Origin: Parcubacteria bacterium C7867-007
GTDB taxonomy: Bacteria > Patescibacteriota > Minisyncoccia > Phycocordibacterales > Phycocordibacteraceae
Assembly: GCA_001189195.1 (NCBI GenBank)
Contig: LFCQ01000003.1
Span: 207,791 to 271,790 of the forward strand
Reading direction: 5' to 3'
DNA length: 64,000 nt
A program made the position numbers and the translations under genes. Shown one piece after another: positions 2,999 to 17,145 of the stretch (positions are counted from its first letter, which is position 1; every line of letters begins with the position of its first letter). Under the pieces are notes generated by a model that saw only the letters and a list, made by a program, of their open reading frames with translations, had not been told where the DNA came from and ran no database searches.

Positions 2999-4073
2999 GT
3001 ACCGCAATAACCCGTACGTTAAAAGTACGGTACATATAATTGCGCTGCAGATCACGCTCACCATCCTTACCGTTGCGGTGTTTGGGTGGGGCCTCCAATA
3101 CTCACAAACTCAGATTGTAAGCTCTATTAGCGAGCATATTGCGCAGGCAATGCAGGGCGGTACCACAAGCAGCATTTCCCTTGGCGAATCAATCACTGAT
3201 GTGCAGTCGCAAACCATTGGATATGTGTTTGCGGTACTGATTCTTCTAACCATTCTATTTGGTTTTCTGGCGGCACGCTTTGCGCTACGACCCGCTCGCG
3301 ATTCACTTCGATTCCAGAAACGGTTTATTGGAAACGTGGCTCATGAAATCCGTACCCCACTCGCGGTTATTAAAACGAGTACCGAGGTTGCGCTCATGAA
3401 TCCGGGGGTATCAAGGGACATGCGCGAAACTCTAACCCAAACAATTAAGGAGCTTGATAGAATCTCAGAGACAATCAACAATCTTCTTTCTTTTGATAAC
3501 CTCATTCGCCCGGGCCGAATTAAATCACAACCCGTGGATCTTGGAATCCTTGTACGGGAAGCAGCAGCAAAGCATCAGGCACTAGCACACTCACGAGGGA
3601 TAACTCTGTCGGTACGAATACTAGATACTGAATACTGCATTTTAGGTAACGAGGTTGCACTAGATCAGGTACTCACTAACTTAATTAAAAACGCGATCAA
3701 CTATACTCCTGAACACAAGAATGGTTCGGTCTCCGTATCTCTTGAAGAGGACTATCAAGGACGGATTATTGTATTGATAGAAGACACAGGTATCGGTATT
3801 GCACAGAAGGATCTCTATCACATATTTGAACCTTTCTTTCGAGCTGAAACATCACGCAACCGGGGTATCGGTGGCGGAACTTCTGGTCTGGGTCTGGCTA
3901 TAGTCAATGAGATAGTACGCCTTCATCGTGGAAGTATCACGGTGCGCAGTGTTGTGGGTCGTGGTACGACCATTGAGCTATGCTTCCCTCGCATTGGGAG
4001 CGAGTCTCAAAAGAAGCCGGGGAACAGCGACTCGAATGATGGCGTGGAAGAAGTGGAAATGAATCTTGGCTAG
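2931..4073 (+). CDS. sensor histidine kinase (HisKA + HATPase_c)
   Basis: H-box HEIRTPLAVIKT, N-box LIKNAINYT, G-boxes IEDTGIGI and GGGTSGLGLAIV, and N-terminal TM segments. The 5' end overlaps the regulator, so the exact start is uncertain (2931 or a downstream Met). Confidence 0.85.
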   Translation: MIMQMPTPSSKRFEVLGTDLTDRYRNNPYVKSTVHIIALQITLTILTVAVFGWGLQYSQTQIVSSISEHIAQAMQGGTTSSISLGESITDVQSQTIGYVFAVLILLTILFGFLAARFALRPARDSLRFQKRFIGNVAHEIRTPLAVIKTSTEVALMNPGVSRDMRETLTQTIKELDRISETINNLLSFDNLIRPGRIKSQPVDLGILVREAAAKHQALAHSRGITLSVRILDTEYCILGNEVALDQVLTNLIKNAINYTPEHKNGSVSVSLEEDYQGRIIVLIEDTGIGIAQKDLYHIFEPFFRAETSRNRGIGGGTSGLGLAIVNEIVRLHRGSITVRSVVGRGTTIELCFPRIGSESQKKPGNSDSNDGVEEVEMNLG

Positions 4074-4582
4074 AGACCCTGATTCACCGATCCACTCGTA
4101 CGACGAATGAGATCATCACGCATCATTTCTGCTTCTACTTTTGTGAGTCCAGGAAGTATGCCTTCTGCACCTAGGTTAGTTCCACCATATTGGCTCACAC
4201 CACTGGAACCTGCAGTCTGAATATTTAGACTCGAAAGTCCAAGAAGGCGATCCAGAATACCGCGGTTGATATCAACATTCTGAATACGTGCGTACGGAAT
4301 GGTTACGTATCGTTTATAAATCACGCCAGACTCCTTCTTAAAACCTAAATCAGTCAGTTCATACTTGTATGTCTGATACGTTAGTTTTGCCCAGAGGTAT
4401 GAAAATGCGAGTAGTAGCAGTGCAATGAGCGCACTCCACATAACGGCTGTCTGGATCGAAAACACTTCAGAATCAAGAGCCATAAATCCAATACCAATAA
4501 AGGCAAAGAAGAGGACGAATAGGTAGGAAATGAAGTTCCCCACAAAGAATAAGTAGAATGATTTTGGATCAAGATGTTTCAT
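4070..4582 (-). CDS. bacterial PH-domain (bPH_2 / YdbS-like) membrane protein
   Basis: Two N-terminal TM helices are followed by a YKYELTDLGFKKESGVIYKRYVTIPYARIQNVDINRGILDRLLGLSSL pattern typical of DUF304/bPH_2. Confidence 0.55.
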   Translation of the reverse strand: MKHLDPKSFYLFFVGNFISYLFVLFFAFIGIGFMALDSEVFSIQTAVMWSALIALLLLAFSYLWAKLTYQTYKYELTDLGFKKESGVIYKRYVTIPYARIQNVDINRGILDRLLGLSSLNIQTAGSSGVSQYGGTNLGAEGILPGLTKVEAEMMRDDLIRRTSGSVNQGL

Positions 4583-4588
4583 GTGTGT

Positions 4589-5056
4589 TTAATTATTTTC
4601 TGAAGCTATTTGTCGCATGTATTTCACGGTTAGATACAGAGACGGCATCGCAAGTAAGATCAGGAGCACAAGGTCGGTATAGCCGTAGAATTCAAGCTGA
4701 GTAAATCCGATGAGTAGCGATAGGGTTAGGACTGCAATGCCAACAGGTATCAAGATGACCGCAATAGGAAAACTAATTGATAGATAACGATACCAAAACC
4801 TCTTTCCATCTCCCTTCTTATTAAGGTAGTACGCAAGTGCGGTGATACCAATCAGAAGCAGCACCTCAACACCAAACTCTGCCCATTTGAGCCATGCGGG
4901 AATGTAGAGGTAGTCATATGCACCCGTGAATGGAACTACGAGAAGCAGACAGAACGCCGCAAAGATTATTGCGTATGCAACAAACTCTCCCTTCCCCACC
5001 TTCTCTTCTTTAAGAGCCTGGGCCATCTTCCATGGCATGAATAGTCGCGTAAGCAT
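4589..5056 (-). CDS. hypothetical polytopic membrane protein
   Basis: Four predicted TM helices. The start is set at Met45 of the ORF (5056) to avoid overlapping the stop of the downstream convergent-frame gene. No recognisable family. Confidence 0.4.
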   Translation of the reverse strand: MLTRLFMPWKMAQALKEEKVGKGEFVAYAIIFAAFCLLLVVPFTGAYDYLYIPAWLKWAEFGVEVLLLIGITALAYYLNKKGDGKRFWYRYLSISFPIAVILIPVGIAVLTLSLLIGFTQLEFYGYTDLVLLILLAMPSLYLTVKYMRQIASENN

Positions 5057-5066
5057 ATCTATATAT

Positions 5067-5885
5067 TTAGTATTTAATGGTTCGCCCTGTGTCGAAGTAG
5101 AAGTAGCCTTCCTGATCAATATAGAACTTGATGTTGGTATTTGGATTCTCTCCCGCAAGTTCAAATTCTGGATTGCTCTTAGTCTCACGCACCAGCTTAA
5201 AGACTAGAGAATCGCTCATTCCACCTTGACCATCAATTTCTTGATTGCGTGCGTAATAATAAACTTTATTACCTATCGCAAGGTACGCCGACAGTGTATC
5301 CAAAGTTACGAGAATCCTTGGTTTCTGTCCATTGAGTTGTACTGCGAAGCTTTCAGTACCTTCGTAGATTGTTTCATCATCATATCCAAGACTTATATAT
5401 GACGATGCGGCATTGAGTTTCTGGGCAGCAGCGTCTGCAATAAGTGGTTGAAATGATTCTGGGTCTGCATAGGGTATTGGGTTCGATTCGAAATACACGT
5501 GCGACTGATCACGTCCATATCGTGGCGCATCAGGATACATAGTAAATGTATCGACGTTCCGCGTAACCAACCAGGAGGTATCGTTAAAGTTGTAATACAC
5601 TGCACCAAATTCAGGTATTACGTAGTAACCACCACACGGTAGATCATTCTTGTGGACTGAAAGAAGGAGTTCTGGAGCATCGTAATTGCATACAGGGGCA
5701 TCAGCAGTACTCTTGCCATCAACTTCCTTCCCATTTTCATATACGAACCTCGGCCCACCCTCATTGTAGTGAATGGTTTCTGGAATGTCTTTGTTCTGCA
5801 CTAAGTATATAAGTGCTCCAAGAGCGAGCAGGATCGCTAGTGCTGCACCAATGCGCCACACGTATTTCTCTACAACAGTCATCAT
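5067..5885 (-). CDS. hypothetical N-terminally membrane-anchored extracytoplasmic protein
   Basis: N-terminal TM anchor (IGAALAILLALGALIYLV) followed by ~240 aa rich in Y/N/D. No family recognised. Confidence 0.45.
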   Translation of the reverse strand: MMTVVEKYVWRIGAALAILLALGALIYLVQNKDIPETIHYNEGGPRFVYENGKEVDGKSTADAPVCNYDAPELLLSVHKNDLPCGGYYVIPEFGAVYYNFNDTSWLVTRNVDTFTMYPDAPRYGRDQSHVYFESNPIPYADPESFQPLIADAAAQKLNAASSYISLGYDDETIYEGTESFAVQLNGQKPRILVTLDTLSAYLAIGNKVYYYARNQEIDGQGGMSDSLVFKLVRETKSNPEFELAGENPNTNIKFYIDQEGYFYFDTGRTIKY

Positions 5886-13116: not shown

Positions 13117-15036
13117 ATGAATCAGTTCTACGTAGTACTCCCTGCAATCATCGGCTGCTATCTTGTTACGCTCGTATTTATTGCAGCAGTGATACGTGAG
13201 CTCTGGGTGATCCATCATCCTGGTTTAACGTTCTGGGGATTCTTGGAACACAAAGTGCGTATACCTAAAGAGAAGAAAATAAAAGAAGTGAAAGTGCCAG
13301 TCGTTAAAGTATCAAAGCCTATTAAAGTACAGTCACCAGCAGTTCCTATTGTTCCAGCAATTCCTCTGGCAGCACGTTCCCCACTCTATCGTTTAATACA
13401 GCCACACCTTCAAGGTGAGGTGGAAGACTCCACTGAGGAACGTGACAAGTATTCTCGAGACACTAGCCTCTTTACGAGAAAGCCGGAGCTCGTCGTGTAT
13501 CCAAAGAACGCTGATGATGTATCAGAGCTCGTTATAGCAGCACGTGCGGCACGTACCCATGGCATGGATGTTTCTATAACTGCACGCTCTGCAGGAACAG
13601 ATATGTCTGGTGGCCCCCTCACCAACTCAATTGTTGCAGTGTTCACGAAATACATGAATAAAGTGATTACTGTTGGTCCAGAAGGTGATCATGGATATGC
13701 CGTCACTGAGCCAGGGATCTACTACCGAGACTTTGAGAAAGAAACACTAAAGCATGGTTTTATACTTCCCTCCTATCCTGCCTCACGCTCTATCTGTGCG
13801 CTAGGAGGAATCATCAATAACGATTCCGGTGGTGAACGTACTCTTGAGTATGGAAAAACTCGCAAGTATGTAGAGGAACTTGATGTGGTGCTTTCAGATG
13901 GAACACAGACCACGTTCAAAGCTCTCACTGCCCGTGAACTTGCTGAGAAACAGAAGCTCCCAACGCTTGAAGGATCTATATACAAGCGTATGAGTGAGAT
14001 GGTGAGCACGTATTCAAAGACCATTGAGAAAGCACGGCCACGCGTGTCAAAGAACTCAGCTGGGTATGCGCTTTGGGATATACATGATCCTAAAACAGGC
14101 ATGTTCAATCTTGCAAAGCTTATTACGGGTGCACAGGGTACCCTCGCTCTTGTTACCAAGGCAAAGCTTTCACTCGTGAAGCCACAGGAACATCGTGCCA
14201 TGCTCATTGTGTTTCTTTCTGATCTTGAGGTGCTGCCGCAGGTGGTGAAGAAGGTGCTTCCCTTCAACCCAGAATCATTTGAATCATATGATGATCACAC
14301 GCTAAAACTTGCCGTGCAGTTCATGCCACAAATGCTTTCTCAGATGGGCATATTCCGTGCTGCACGTCTTGGCATGTCCTTCCTGCCTGAGGTGGGTATG
14401 GTACTTCGTGGTGGTGTACCAAAGTTGGTGCTCATGGCTGAGTTCTCAGAAGATACGGCAGACTACGCGCTTAAGCGTGCACAAGATGCACGTGCTGCTG
14501 TATCCTCTCTTAAGCTCCCGACAAGTATCGCAAAGAACGAGCGGGGTGCTGAGAAGTACTGGATCGTTCGTCGTGAGAGCTTTGCACTTTTGCGCAAGAA
14601 TCTAAAGGGGCTCTATGCTTCCCCATTCATTGATGACTTTGTGGTACCTCCGGAGTCTTATCCAAAGTTTCTTCCAGAACTTAACACTCTACTTGCGAAG
14701 TACGATCTTATATACACGATCGCAGGACATATTGGAGATGGTAACTTCCATATCATTCCACTCATGGATGTTTCAAAACCAGAGGCACGCAAGATTATTC
14801 TTGAGCTTGCACCACTCGTTTATGACATCGTACTCAAATACGGTGGCTCTACCACCGGTGAACACAACGACGGTATCATTCGTACCCCATACCTTGAACA
14901 GATGTTTGGTGCAGATATGGTGAAACTGTTTGCAGAAACAAAACGTATCTTTGATCCCGAGAATATCTTCAATCCTGGGAAGAAGGTTGGGGGTACCTTT
15001 GCAGATATTGAGGAGAGTATGATCCGGAAGATGTAG
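13117..15036 (+). CDS. FAD-linked oxidase (FAD_binding_4; GlcD/D-lactate dehydrogenase-like) with N-terminal TM and Pro-rich linker
   Basis: An N-terminal TM helix is followed by KVPVVKVSKPIKVQSPAVPIVPAIPL. The FAD-binding PCMH domain is then present (VVYPKNADDVSELV...RSAGTDMSGG....ALGGIINNDSGG), and a C-terminal FAD-oxidase_C region. Confidence 0.8.
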   Translation: MNQFYVVLPAIIGCYLVTLVFIAAVIRELWVIHHPGLTFWGFLEHKVRIPKEKKIKEVKVPVVKVSKPIKVQSPAVPIVPAIPLAARSPLYRLIQPHLQGEVEDSTEERDKYSRDTSLFTRKPELVVYPKNADDVSELVIAARAARTHGMDVSITARSAGTDMSGGPLTNSIVAVFTKYMNKVITVGPEGDHGYAVTEPGIYYRDFEKETLKHGFILPSYPASRSICALGGIINNDSGGERTLEYGKTRKYVEELDVVLSDGTQTTFKALTARELAEKQKLPTLEGSIYKRMSEMVSTYSKTIEKARPRVSKNSAGYALWDIHDPKTGMFNLAKLITGAQGTLALVTKAKLSLVKPQEHRAMLIVFLSDLEVLPQVVKKVLPFNPESFESYDDHTLKLAVQFMPQMLSQMGIFRAARLGMSFLPEVGMVLRGGVPKLVLMAEFSEDTADYALKRAQDARAAVSSLKLPTSIAKNERGAEKYWIVRRESFALLRKNLKGLYASPFIDDFVVPPESYPKFLPELNTLLAKYDLIYTIAGHIGDGNFHIIPLMDVSKPEARKIILELAPLVYDIVLKYGGSTTGEHNDGIIRTPYLEQMFGADMVKLFAETKRIFDPENIFNPGKKVGGTFADIEESMIRKM

Positions 15037-15080
15037 TTGTGCAGCATTGACTCTTACAGTCATCACCCCTATCCTAACTC

Positions 15081-15266
15081 TGGGTGTTCGAGCAACATGC
15101 GCACTACTGTACGGTTGGATCAGCATGCCAGCCCGAATACGCGCATGGCCATCGCATGTTAGCCGGCCTCGAATCGTTGAGCTTGATTGCTGAACCGCAG
15201 TTATTGCTTCTACCTTGAGGAACGCTCGCACCACAATGTGCGAATGCCTTGGTGCTCGAACACCCA
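15081..15266. repeat. 14-bp perfect long-range inverted repeat (tgggtgttcgagca / tgctcgaacaccca) enclosing ~158 nt with further internal hairpins
   Basis: Arms are at 15081-15094 and 15253-15266. Internal hairpins include catgcgc...gcgcatg and cgcac-cacaat-gtgcg. Confidence 0.5.
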
Positions 15267-15274
15267 ACCCACTA

Positions 15275-15304
15275 CACCGCTCTTTGAGCGGTGCTCTATT
15301 TTGC
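15275..15304 (+). terminator. intrinsic terminator closing the structured element
   Basis: CACCGCTC-tttg-AGCGGTG followed by ctctattttg. Confidence 0.5.
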
Positions 15305-15317
15305 AAAAGGTGTCTGG

Positions 15318-15337
15318 CTGGGACGATGTTGGAACCT
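15318..15337 (+). promoter_or_regulatory. copy 1 of a 20-nt direct repeat ctgggacgatgttggaacct, 48 nt upstream of the YkgJ-like gene start
   Basis: It is identical to the 20-mer at 15931-15950 and contains a TTGGAA (-35-like) hexamer. An SD sequence (ggag) precedes the ATG at 15386. Confidence 0.45.
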
Positions 15338-15385
15338 TTCTGCAATATATGGTAGGTTCTGTCCAGATCTGCACTGGAGAAACAC

Positions 15386-15874
15386 ATGGGCGACGAAGCT
15401 GAGGTAAGCATCCGCTCATGTGAGGGATGCACCGCCTGTTGCTATACGCATGCAGTCGGAGAAATACAGAAATGGGAATTCAGTACTTGCGCTTCATGCA
15501 ATGAAACGGGCTGCGGTATCTACGCATCACGACCCCGTGCATGCGGCTCATATTTCTGTGCCTGGGCGGTTAACGACATCGGAAATGATGACGAGCGTCC
15601 GGATAAGGTAGGTGTGGTTTGCAATACACTATTCACTCGCTTCACCGCAGATGATCCTCCCTCAATACTAATGCTGGAGGCATGGCCTGGAGCGCTTGAT
15701 GAAGGACCGGCGCAGGCACTGCTGGCTCGAATACTTGCAGACGGAACATCAGTCCGTACCGGAACACGAGATGGGTCACCACGCTGGAAATACCATGTTC
15801 TCAAACAGACGATGGAAACATTCGGGCAGATGCTCGAAGAGAATAATCTTAAAGTTGTCTGGCACGATATTTGA
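15386..15874 (+). CDS. YkgJ-family (UPF0153) putative Zn/Fe-chelating CxxCxxCC protein
   Basis: N-terminal CEGCTACC (CxxCxxCC), plus a further Cys cluster CASCNETGCGIY...CGSYFCAW. Confidence 0.65.
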   Translation: MGDEAEVSIRSCEGCTACCYTHAVGEIQKWEFSTCASCNETGCGIYASRPRACGSYFCAWAVNDIGNDDERPDKVGVVCNTLFTRFTADDPPSILMLEAWPGALDEGPAQALLARILADGTSVRTGTRDGSPRWKYHVLKQTMETFGQMLEENNLKVVWHDI

Positions 15875-15930
15875 ACTCATCTAGAGACCGTCTTAGGACG
15901 GTTCTCTTTTTATAATTGCGAGCTGGCAGT

Positions 15931-15950
15931 CTGGGACGATGTTGGAACCT
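15931..15950 (+). promoter_or_regulatory. copy 2 of the 20-nt direct repeat, 46 nt upstream of the next gene start
   Basis: Perfect match to 15318-15337 with the same spacing to an SD (ggagga) and ATG (15997). Confidence 0.45.
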
Positions 15951-15996
15951 GTGCTACGGTGGTCTCAGATTTGAAATATCAGCTCTGGAGGAGCAT

Positions 15997-16572
15997 ATGA
16001 CCAGAACAAAAACTGAGATACTCGCTCAAGCTCGGCAAGACAGCGCAATGCGAATGCTGTTCGAGGGGTTGAGCGAGGAGAATGCGCTTCGTGTTGCTTG
16101 GCAGGTGCTTTCCCACAAGCACTCGCGATATCTCAGCGAATTCGATCCGAATCTTATCGATGATATTTTCGCGCAAGATGTTCTTAGAATGATTCAAGAA
16201 TACACTGCTGAATTCATGACCTACGTAGACGTGGTCAGCATGGACGGGCACCGAGTTTCCCTTTCTGTCCGACTCACTACGGAGCTTCCGTTCAAGCTCA
16301 ATGGATCCTTCTTGGGCTTGCCGCCCTTTCCGCTTATCAACGAGGCCGAGCTGCTCGAAGTTCGGGTAAGTGGTCAGATGGTCATCTACAAAAGCCAGTG
16401 CACCACCGATCACACAAAGAATGAGAATTCTCTTTCAGCGATGACGAGTTTTGATTTGGTCACACTGGATCGGTGTCGTGTAGAAGTTGATTTTTTTGCG
16501 AATAATCGCTGGCTCACTCGACATCTGGTGCGCATTGACCCATCAGTTATTCAAAGTCACCCTTCGGGGTGA
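15997..16572 (+). CDS. hypothetical protein
   Basis: The start is placed at MTRTKTEIL (the ORF's Met28), which has a good SD (ggagga, 6 nt spacing). No family recognised. The stop lies inside a terminator hairpin. Confidence 0.5.
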   Translation: MTRTKTEILAQARQDSAMRMLFEGLSEENALRVAWQVLSHKHSRYLSEFDPNLIDDIFAQDVLRMIQEYTAEFMTYVDVVSMDGHRVSLSVRLTTELPFKLNGSFLGLPPFPLINEAELLEVRVSGQMVIYKSQCTTDHTKNENSLSAMTSFDLVTLDRCRVEVDFFANNRWLTRHLVRIDPSVIQSHPSG

Positions 16573-16584
16573 CTTCTTTTTTGC
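16555..16584 (+). terminator. intrinsic terminator
   Basis: GTCACCC-ttcg-GGGTGAC followed by ttctttttt. Confidence 0.65.
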
Positions 16585-16776
16585 TGGCAGATTAGGGATC
16601 AAACCATCAATGTAATGGTAATCCCCACCTCCGTGCGGAAACATTGCGATTTTGTCCATTCTGTAGCATACTAGGGGCAACTCGCCGATTTCCAGAAGCT
16701 TTGTGCGACCGCTCCAAAACGTGTCTCCCCAAGTGTTCGGTGCCAGCGAGGTTATTACATAGAATTCTCAGCCCAC

Positions 16777-17145
16777 ATGGCAAACAACAAGCTCTATGTC
16801 GGTGGTATCCCATACCGCACGACCGAGGATGAACTCCGAACTGCTTTTGAAGAAGCAGGTACAGTAACGTCCGCAAGTATTATCATGGACCGTATGACCA
16901 ATCGCTCACGTGGCTTCGGCTTCGTAGAGATGGCAGACGATGCAATGGCCCAAGCGGCTGTTGATCGCTGGGATGGCAAGGAGATGGATGGCCGTATGCT
17001 TTCCGTTTCATTTGCTCGTCCTCAGGGTGACCGTCCAGCAGGTGATCGTCCTCCTCGTCGCGAAGGCGGCTTTGGTGGCGGAAACCGTGGCGGTGGCTAT
17101 GGTGGTGGTGATCGCGGCGGCTTCGGCGGCGGCAACAGCTACTAG
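16777..17145 (+). CDS. RRM-type RNA-binding protein with Gly-rich C-terminus
   Basis: RNP-2 KLYVGGIP and RNP-1 RGFGFVEM motifs are present. The C-terminal tail GGFGGGNRGGGYGGGDRGGFGGG resembles cyanobacterial Rbp / glycine-rich RBPs. Confidence 0.85.
   Translation: MANNKLYVGGIPYRTTEDELRTAFEEAGTVTSASIIMDRMTNRSRGFGFVEMADDAMAQAAVDRWDGKEMDGRMLSVSFARPQGDRPAGDRPPRREGGFGGGNRGGGYGGGDRGGFGGGNSY

Follow-up and report, generated by a model that had tools for sequence, protein, structure and literature searches.

The described systems closest in kind to the element reported here are integrons, especially sedentary chromosomal integrons with their near-identical attC sites, and genomic islands that target tRNA genes. 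Integrons hold mostly single-gene cassettes, separated by one repeated type of site in uniform orientation, with a distinct terminal site at one end; the cassettes serve diverse functions, mostly accessory or unknown ones, a given cassette recurs in different genomes and array positions, and the arrays are hypervariable between conserved flanks. Islands recognised by the Islander principle (PMC4383910) and the tycheposons of Prochlorococcus (bioRxiv 10.1101/2020.12.28.424599) use the 3′ end of a tRNA gene as their anchor, and partial copies of that gene lie beyond it in direct orientation; tandem accretion of these elements gives variable islands in streamlined genomes, and insertion may take place beside short tRNA segments away from the full gene. 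Each element spans 10-20 kb or more, encodes an integrase of its own and often replication genes as well, and has repeats that copy the host tRNA (PMC4383910; bioRxiv 10.1101/2020.12.28.424599). Here, we analysed a 64,000-nucleotide stretch of DNA from Parcubacteria bacterium C7867-007 (contig LFCQ01000003.1; "the window" below means this whole stretch), in which a short sequence is repeated upstream of two adjacent genes. We hold it to be about an even chance that this element is an att-like recombination site of an integron-like cassette platform anchored at tRNA-Gln.

The perfect repeat of the preliminary description was confirmed. The exact 20-mer, CTGGGACGATGTTGGAACCT, lies on the + strand at 15318-15337 and 15931-15950 and at no other place in the window; no third match was found in the 64 kb with up to 3 mismatches allowed. 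The chance expectation is 0.01, and two or more matches were seen in 0 of 100 shuffled sequences. The likeness between both copies reaches about 10 nt further upstream, to about 30 nt in total. Also correct was the reported spacing: the copies end 48 nt and 46 nt before the start codons of the genes that follow (ATG at 15386 and 15997, genes 1 and 2 below), each preceded by a Shine-Dalgarno sequence (GGAGAA and GGAGGAG, respectively). An intrinsic-terminator-like hairpin precedes each copy (15275-15293 and 15886-15903), and a third hairpin stands 3′ of gene 2 (16554-16575).

The two copies belong to a large family in the Candidate Phyla Radiation (CPR), or Patescibacteria. We scanned one genome per species for the 18-mer TGGGACGATGTTGGAACC, and there were more than 116 stretches among the matches listed, mostly in records of Paceibacterota/Parcubacteria, Kaiser-, Nomura-, Wolfe-, Moranii- and Berkelbacteria and Saccharibacteria (taxon labels here and below are those given by depositors); several copies per 8-kb block were common. 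A mismatch-tolerant scan, with a threshold that gave 0 matches in shuffled sequence, yielded 139 further, diverged copies. The total is at least 267 copies in 89 CPR/Patescibacteria loci, with up to 9 per 8 kb; the loci, which carry labels beginning with L, are 8-kb blocks from species representatives, and array ends are often cut off in them. The family consensus is TTGCTGG[C/G]nGTC-TGGGACGATGTTGGAACC-TTTnT, an element of about 33 nt with the window 20-mer as its core; with the C/T variation at the end of the core taken in, it can be written TTGCTGG[C/G]nGTC-TGGGACGATGTTGGAAC[C/T]-TTT. The 12 nt 5′ of the 18-mer (TTGCTGG[C/G]nGTC) are conserved although they lie outside the search pattern, and no conservation was found upstream of motif position -12. 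When the 64 kb were searched with a profile of the 267 members, the two window copies were the only ones found (E = 5e-10 for copy 2 and 4e-7 for copy 1), apart from a borderline stretch described below. All copies are on one strand in each of the 66 loci with two or more copies. One genome may hold arrays at several places, as in C7867-008 (L047, L013 with L085, and L011) and in H51-bin099_1, where there are five such loci. We found no description of the element in the full-text literature, the sequence itself being included as a query, and neither tRNA nor integrases nor repeats of this kind are mentioned in a paper on horizontal transfer in Patescibacteria.

Several matches to the search sequences stand apart from this family. 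Non-CPR matches of the 18-mer (Rhodobacterales, Paenibacillus, an archaeon and an actinobacterium) sit within long open reading frames (ORFs) and were set aside as coding or chance matches. In a Rhodobacterales gene the 23-mer GTCTGGGACGATGTTGGAACCTT is read in frame (VWDDVGTF; L007, L019, L031 and other loci); by its downstream PCQ motif alone, this gene reads as a C5 DNA methyltransferase. The same 23-mer is present in 34 of 34 viral-contig matches (L118-L151, IMG/VR). The Rhodobacterales occurrence is probably a coding coincidence, although the match runs 5 bases beyond the searched 18-mer. The IMG/VR scan gave no copy of the CPR type, its 34 matches all being C5-methyltransferase coding sequence of the Rhodobacterales type, and BLAST against phage and plasmid collections gave no match; a phage or plasmid origin of the element was rejected on these grounds. 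Four matches labelled Microgenomates (L084 4860-5055; L001, L004 and L077) have a coding context unlike that of the arrays: the 18-mer lies within a small ORF or at an ORF end, directly 5′ of a gene for a PLD-like nuclease (PF13091), and the 5′ end of a tRNA-Gln lies 14 nt away in L084.

Nearly every array has the same layout, in which units of motif and cassette are repeated n times and a terminal tRNA-Gln end follows. We analysed 179 inter-copy intervals, for which the orientation of ORFs was assigned by a longest-ORF heuristic that was checked with Pfam on a sample only. The median array period is 561 nt. The main ORF runs in the direction of the motif in 51 intervals and against it in 77, the other 51 being ambiguous. 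In forward cassettes, to which those of the window belong, a median of 50 nt separates the motif end from the start codon, and a median of 57 nt, a terminator-sized distance, separates the stop codon from the next motif; their leader contains a Shine-Dalgarno sequence, and a terminator is present. In reverse cassettes the distances are a median 18 nt between the stop codon and the GGAACC end of the motif and about 32 nt between the start codon and the left end of the next one. The reverse ORFs are real genes, Pfam examples among them including HAD, NUDIX, GNAT, His_Phos_1, methyltransferase, HD, Ser_hydrolase and deaminase domains. A TGnTAnnnT sequence ends 6-7 nt before the start codon in 22 of the 77 reverse cassettes, a clustering not seen in shuffles, and a Shine-Dalgarno sequence is present in 10 of the 77. 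As far as can be judged from sequence, this suggests widespread leaderless mRNAs from extended -10 promoters in these Parcubacteria (e.g., L110 3783-6430).

Both orientations have their own promoter-like signals and terminators, and so the cassette can be regarded as an autonomous expression unit and the motif as the boundary between units. Junctions of neighbouring cassettes (13 forward-forward, 11 forward-reverse, 13 reverse-forward and 23 reverse-reverse) are near the expectation for independent orientations. As the copies keep one orientation while genes lie either way, and as convergent junctions occur, the element is not simply a promoter or an operator. The interpretation offered in the preliminary description, a shared promoter/operator that co-regulates both genes, therefore fails against at least 267 copies in 89 loci, the orientation of which is tied to the array. 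The wider search for the motif, which had been proposed as a way to define a regulon, led to a family of boundaries instead, with copies between convergent gene ends about as frequent as chance predicts (11 observed, 14.4 expected).

The terminal site links the arrays to tRNA-Gln. A tRNA-Gln (UUG or CUG) was detected by ARAGORN in 19 loci, and roughly one in two of the tRNAs found across all loci is of this type; 17 of the 19 have it past the last copy and on the opposite strand, which makes the copies direct repeats located past the 3′ end of that gene. When the end of the tRNA-Gln gene is read in reverse complement, tt-GCTGGGAGAC-TAGGG-ATCGAAC-C, it can be aligned with the motif, tt-GCTGGCAGTC-TGGGA-CGATGTTGGAAC-C, over the trailer, the discriminator, the acceptor 3′ strand and the T-arm, with the T-loop expanded by about 6 nt in the motif. 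The left end of the motif is that of the genomic trailer (TTGC) and not that of the mature CCA end (TGGC), a G at position -11 being present in 8 of 101 copies; this match to the trailer favours a relationship at the DNA level. The left arm of the motif also tracks the tRNA-Gln or terminal site of the host (GCTGG, GCTCGGGG, GTTCGGG or GTTGG), and in a permutation test of left arms against their own terminal sites the observed value was reached in 11 of 2000 permutations.

Isolated fragments of the tRNA-Gln 3′ end, 23-30 nt long and with the consensus (t)tGCTGG[C/G]AGACTAGG[G/T]ATCGAAC[C/T] (0 matches in shuffles), were found in about 35 loci without a full tRNA there. About 32 of these 35 fragments lie one cassette-length (172-1550 nt) 3′ of the last copy and on the same strand, and over 23 nt the terminal sites have 0-5 mismatches. 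In the window, a fragment of this kind lies at 16581-16605, directly after the gene 2 terminator; it covers the trailer, discriminator, acceptor 3′ strand and T-arm, is 22/25 identical to the tRNA-Gln(UUG) of L047, and is the best match to it in the 64 kb, in which ARAGORN found no full tRNA. The internal copies of the motif are a conserved derivative with the T-loop expansion, and the terminal sites are copies of the tRNA end. The longest block common to both is TTGCTGGCAG, and GAACC is also shared.

At one locus (L006 6285-6593, a region that is partly N-masked), two partial tRNA-Gln copies comprising the 3′ two-thirds adjoin the full gene, which is the classical signature of repeated integration at tRNA-Gln.

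Comparison between genomes revealed that cassettes are units of homology whose limits coincide with the motif. The window region 15318-15950 is 88% identical to L011 2900-3527 of the sister metagenome-assembled genome C7867-008, and the homology runs from TGGGAC of copy 1 to GGAACC of copy 2; the flanks are unrelated and the neighbouring cassettes differ. This context, and not a comparison of rates, points to horizontal transfer of cassette 1. The whole cassette 2 unit of the window (motif, 5′ region, gene, terminator and terminal site) has a counterpart in L175, with 82% mean column identity and 73% identical proteins, while the DNA on both sides is unrelated: the L175 unit adjoins yebC/ruvC and the window unit a gene for an RRM protein. 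A cassette common to L002 and L110 gives an alignment that ends 2-4 nt from the motifs in both, and L087 and L105 are similar. The opposite arrangement is seen in L065 and L089, where both flanks are 86-89% identical, but the loci have 2 and 4 motif copies, respectively, and no cassette sequence in common; here the homology ends exactly at the terminal site and, at the other end, at a degenerate motif with the class-a promoter module described below. Synteny also breaks at the tRNA-Gln or terminal site in the pairs L002/L068, L013/L098 and L058/L069. The homology boundaries are compatible with a crossover in the TTGCTGGCAG block.

Taken together, uniform site orientation with free gene orientation, a terminal tRNA site, motif-bounded homology and anchored hypervariability argue that recombination between direct repeats builds and reshuffles the arrays. 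The non-palindromic element of about 33 nt would be the attC-like boundary site of single-gene cassettes, and an attI-like terminal anchor would be provided by the tRNA-Gln gene at its 3′ end or by an isolated 23-30-nt copy of that end. The cassettes, as self-contained expression units in either orientation, would be inserted, lost and exchanged between genomes by recombination at directly repeated sites. From these patterns we infer the mechanism, its crossover point and the kind of enzyme: the crossover may fall in or near the TTGCTGGCAG block, and the most likely agent would be a site-specific recombinase acting in trans. In some forward cassettes, including that of gene 1, the TTGGAA right end could have been co-opted for a secondary role as the -35 of an extended -10 promoter.

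In kind, the arrays are site-delimited cassette arrays, or islands anchored at tRNA genes (tDNA). They share with integrons each of the features listed at the outset, and the platform works like an integron, yet it departs from one in three respects. No integron integrase gene (intI) is adjacent to the arrays in the 8-kb loci, as judged by a regex-level screen. The site is a non-palindromic repeat of about 33 nt and not a 57-141-nt imperfect palindrome with R''(RYYYAAC) and R'(GTTRRRY) cores, and GTTGGAA in the motif misses GTTRRRY at the final position. The cassettes have their own promoters and terminators and lie in both orientations, unlike promoterless, co-oriented cassettes under a common Pc promoter. 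In addition, the terminal site is the tRNA-Gln 3′ end or a copy of it, and there are several arrays per genome. The arrays resemble tRNA-targeting islands and tycheposons in their anchor, their direct partial copies and their accretion, and differ from them in having units of about 0.3-1.6 kb that are single genes without an integrase, and an internal repeat that derives from the tRNA end and is itself conserved. Tyrosine recombinases can act on non-palindromic sites: the sfx sites used by Rci in the R64 shufflon are asymmetric, with one conserved arm beside the crossover. Shufflons invert segments between inverted sites within one gene cluster, whereas the direct repeats described here delimit independent genes. 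A repetitive extragenic palindrome or bacterial interspersed mosaic element (REP/BIME), or a repeat of the miniature inverted-repeat transposable element (MITE) type, was rejected, because the element is non-palindromic, keeps one orientation per array and is tied to the tRNA-Gln end.

Several results weigh against a recombination site. The element lacks dyad symmetry and a conserved partner arm, there is no inverted repeat within or beside it, and in being asymmetric and non-palindromic it differs from typical core sites of tyrosine and serine recombinases as well as from attC. Motif and terminal site differ in the T-loop region. The covariation of the left arm with the terminal site is modest, and the loci are phylogenetically non-independent. 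We found no excised circle, no empty site and no strain-level insertion or deletion exactly at a motif; strain-level polymorphisms around gene 1 homologues (L167-L172) have their breakpoints off the motifs, in a lineage with few copies. The near-identity of the element across distant genomes could instead reflect a role in protein binding, insulation or promotion of transcription, with recombination being incidental. Finally, no array-linked enzyme came to light. Clustering of 777 ORFs gave no recombinase that recurs in the 8-kb loci; the recurrent neighbours are housekeeping genes, dnaX being the commonest beside the tRNA-Gln anchor. In a catalytic-motif screen of 892 ORFs, drawn from the 89 loci and the window, the one tyrosine recombinase found was in L022, and the window showed no tyrosine or serine recombinase signature, although the screen was made at regex level and divergent enzymes may escape it. 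The L022 protein (3476-5142, - strand) is an ordinary XerA/XerC/D-like protein (NF040815, 243.6 bits), the stop codon of which overlaps a motif, the first in an array that has two cassettes and a tRNA-Gln fragment at its end; we treat the protein as a lead only.

The second cassette of that L022 array (about 3770-3520) has the look of a structured non-coding RNA, with a TTGACA promoter and a terminator, and gave no Rfam match.

The question of promoter function was examined separately for the two window copies. The right end of copy 1 contains TTGGAA (15329-15334), followed after an 18-nt spacer by an extended -10, TGgTAGGTT (15350-15358). A module of the form TTTCTGCAAyatATGnTAgGTTCTGTCyAGA recurs behind about 20 other copies, referred to as class a. 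Homologues of gene 1 with 60-73% identity have lost most or all of the motif and have kept CTGGAA, TTGGCA or TTGACA at the same distance from TGnTAGGTT. Since this -35-like hexamer is kept, a second function as a -35 is plausible for the right end of the element in class a. For gene 1 itself, the right end of copy 1 is plausibly the -35 of its promoter, and transcription would start near 15365. The earlier suggestion that TTGGAA is a -35 hexamer is accordingly plausible for copy 1, and it does not extend to copy 2, downstream of which no convincing -10 was found. A simple consensus promoter scan reports neither a copy 1 nor a copy 2 promoter. Behind some other copies a canonical TTGACA-17-TATAAT promoter occurs 6-16 nt downstream, with no fixed phase. 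A sigma-54 or extracytoplasmic function (ECF)-type promoter was rejected, as the GG-N10-GC and GGAAC-N16/17-CGT spacings misfit, and so was the proposal that reverse cassettes use the motif's left arm as a -35, because the distance from that arm to TGnTAnnnT varies. Nothing links the element to the OmpR-type regulator at 2321, which had been put forward as a possible cognate factor.

The strongest case for a different role of the element is transcriptional: the 33-mer or so would bind RNA polymerase, in the manner of a -35 or UP element, and/or a conserved CPR protein (an activator, a repressor, a silencer of acquired genes or an insulator), and would have been copied before accessory genes, the cassettes being exchanged by other means. 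This would account for the fixed 18-nt distance between TTGGAA and TGnTAGGTT before gene 1 and in the other class-a copies, which is also what the element shares with a sigma-70 promoter with an upstream operator or UP element, and for the hexamer kept by gene 1 homologues. The median of 50 nt between motif and start codon in forward cassettes would likewise fit, as would a contiguous conservation of about 30 nt across very different genomes, such as is expected for a selected protein-binding site. We nevertheless consider this role of the element unlikely, since its orientation is set by the array and tRNA-Gln and not by the genes, as the excess of reverse over forward cassettes and the 11 copies between 3′ ends demonstrate. 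Most copies have no co-oriented gene at a set distance, many face the 3′ ends of genes, and dyad symmetry is absent; unlike at a regulatory site, position and orientation relative to genes are not consistent across occurrences. The canonical promoters downstream of some copies keep no constant phase with the motif, and the promoters of the reverse cassettes vary in their distance from its left arm. A purely transcriptional role would also leave the likeness to tRNA-Gln, the terminal fragment, the tracking of the host tRNA and the motif-bounded homology unexplained. It is still less probable that the copies are passive, either as scars, that is, 3′ fragments of tRNA-Gln displaced in repeated integration by ordinary integrase-bearing elements since reduced by decay to single genes, or as short anchors for RecA-mediated replacement after DNA uptake, with no dedicated site-specific system. 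Direct-orientation tRNA fragments beyond the tRNA 3′ end are the classical signature of integration at tDNA (PMC4383910). Terminal fragments and partial tRNA-Gln duplicates beside the full gene (L006, L075 and L054) agree with such an origin, and so does the lack of an array-linked recombinase in the ORF clustering and the catalytic-motif screen. Neutral scars, however, should decay and resemble the tRNA of each host, whereas the internal copies are not copies of the host tRNA: the variant TGGGACGATGTTGGAAC with the expanded T-loop is near-invariant over hundreds of copies in many lineages. The units are single genes of about 560 nt without remnants of an integrase, and neither scars nor homologous recombination give a reason for the conservation. 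As to anchors, 33 bp are marginal for RecA-dependent exchange.

A function at the level of RNA appears very improbable. Once transcribed, the motif would either be a leader sequence pairing with the tRNA-Gln 3′ end, in the way of a T-box or a primer-binding site, or, if read in the opposite sense, would give reverse genes a tRNA-like 3′ tag or processing signal. The motif strand is indeed complementary to the tRNA-Gln 3′ end and follows its host variants; the ends of reverse genes lie 0-18 nt from the motif and have no terminator hairpin, so that transcripts of these genes should enter the tRNA-like sense; and an imperfect inverted repeat in class a (TCTGGGAC...GTCyAGA; GAACC...GGTTC) tolerates G-U pairs on the gene strand. 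Yet there is usually a terminator and no conserved promoter 5′ of the motif, and canonical promoters downstream of it place the motif outside many forward mRNAs; its left end fits the trailer and not the mature end, for which reason pairing of the primer-binding-site kind with mature tRNA-Gln was rejected, and it has neither an acceptor-stem partner nor an intact T-arm. At the gathering threshold Rfam gave no match besides tRNAs in the window and in 4 array loci, and nothing relevant in 14900-16900 at E <= 10. A structured RNA or riboswitch was also dropped as a candidate, with no Rfam match and with an invariant core that precludes a covariation test.

Returning to the cassette platform, we regard a fuller form of it as possible, though short of an even chance: a previously undescribed, integron-independent system of CPR bacteria, in which a trans-acting recombinase (possibly the single Xer-type enzyme or a new family) would use the tRNA-Gln 3′ end or 25-nt chromosomal decoys as the docking site and the 33-nt tRNA-derived sequence as the cassette site. 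Autonomous single-gene cassettes would then be stockpiled and exchanged between distant CPR lineages, as a major route of accessory-gene acquisition. The machinery behind the arrays has a substantial chance of being new. CPR/Patescibacteria make up a large share of bacterial diversity, have genomes of about 1 Mb with few recognised mobile elements, and acquire accessory genes in ways that are poorly understood. If the proposal is true, a searchable 33-nt marker of hundreds of single-gene cassettes gives a direct handle on their flexible gene pool, and gene exchange in streamlined episymbionts becomes a testable question. It would also mean a new kind of recombination site derived from the end of a tRNA gene, and a recombinase with a compact asymmetric target that may be useful as a tool. 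For annotation, the proposal explains why many small "hypothetical" genes of CPR genomes lie in terminator-punctuated arrays, and it warns against reading the repeat as the mark of a regulon.

The window contains a mini-array on the + strand that consists of copy 1, cassette 1 (promoter, gene 1 and terminator), copy 2, cassette 2 (gene 2 and terminator) and the tRNA-Gln fragment. An intrinsic-terminator-like hairpin with a T-run (15275..15303) stands directly 5′ of copy 1 and closes the candidate RNA unit described below. Copy 1 (15307..15339 in the 33-nt frame), the distal copy of the mini-array, agrees with the family at 26/31 scored positions (E = 3.7e-7); its left arm is degenerate, with AAGGTGTCTGGC where TTGCTGGCAGTC is expected. 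The class-a promoter module (15329..15368), with the conserved CTGTCCAGA, overlaps its right end and includes the putative start. The gene of cassette 1 (15386..15874) encodes a Cys-rich protein of 162 aa, followed by a predicted terminator hairpin (15886..15913). Copy 2 (15920..15952), GAGCTGGCAGTCTGGGACGATGTTGGAACCTGT, is a complete family member with 28/31 positions (E = 4.9e-10). Downstream of it are the gene of cassette 2 (15997..16572), for a protein of 191 aa, its predicted terminator hairpin (16554..16585) and the terminal site (16581..16605), TTGCTGGCAGATTAGGGATCAAACC, which is the reverse complement of a 3′ end fragment of a tRNA-Gln gene.

Neither protein has a significant Pfam or NCBIfam match, and both are left without a family assignment; for gene 1, previously called YkgJ-like and Cys-rich, the second attribute holds and the first is not supported. 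The products of both genes are 100% identical to hypothetical proteins of C7867-007. A metagenome scan with gene 1 returned only relatives of 29-41% identity, in loci without the motif. The window contig is also present in JGI metagenome 3300001199.

A borderline motif-like stretch, GTTGTCTGGCACGATATTTGAACTC, lies on the + strand at the 3′ end of gene 1 (15854..15880; 20/31 positions, with nhmmer E = 0.95 for 15857-15877) and is probably not a functional copy. At the gene end (..KVVWHDI*), this stretch, GTTGTCTGGCACGATATTTGAAC, is kept in the L011 homologue, either as a chance resemblance or as the relic of an old site.

Just 5′ of copy 1, the segment 15047-15300 (+ strand) is a candidate structured non-coding RNA of about 190 nt. 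A promoter-like TTGACT-17-TATCCT (15047-15075) is followed by a 17-bp closing stem (15081-15097 / 15250-15266) and by the terminator at 15275-15293; the predicted fold has -92 kcal/mol (z = -6.4), and there was no match to an Rfam family.

A tRNA-like sequence of 71 nt occurs elsewhere in the window, within the segment 47498-47686 (+ strand). It received no ARAGORN call, scores 18 bits (E = 0.6) as tRNA-Sec in Rfam, and ends in ...GGTTCGATTCCTTCCGCCAGCGCAAA, a 3′ end like that of the terminal sites. On its 3′ side there is a small-RNA-like unit, made up of a promoter-like TTGACA-17-TAGTAT, about 70 nt and a terminator. In L027, the orthologous intergenic site is occupied by a single motif copy together with a reverse gene and a 3′ fragment of tRNA-Gln.

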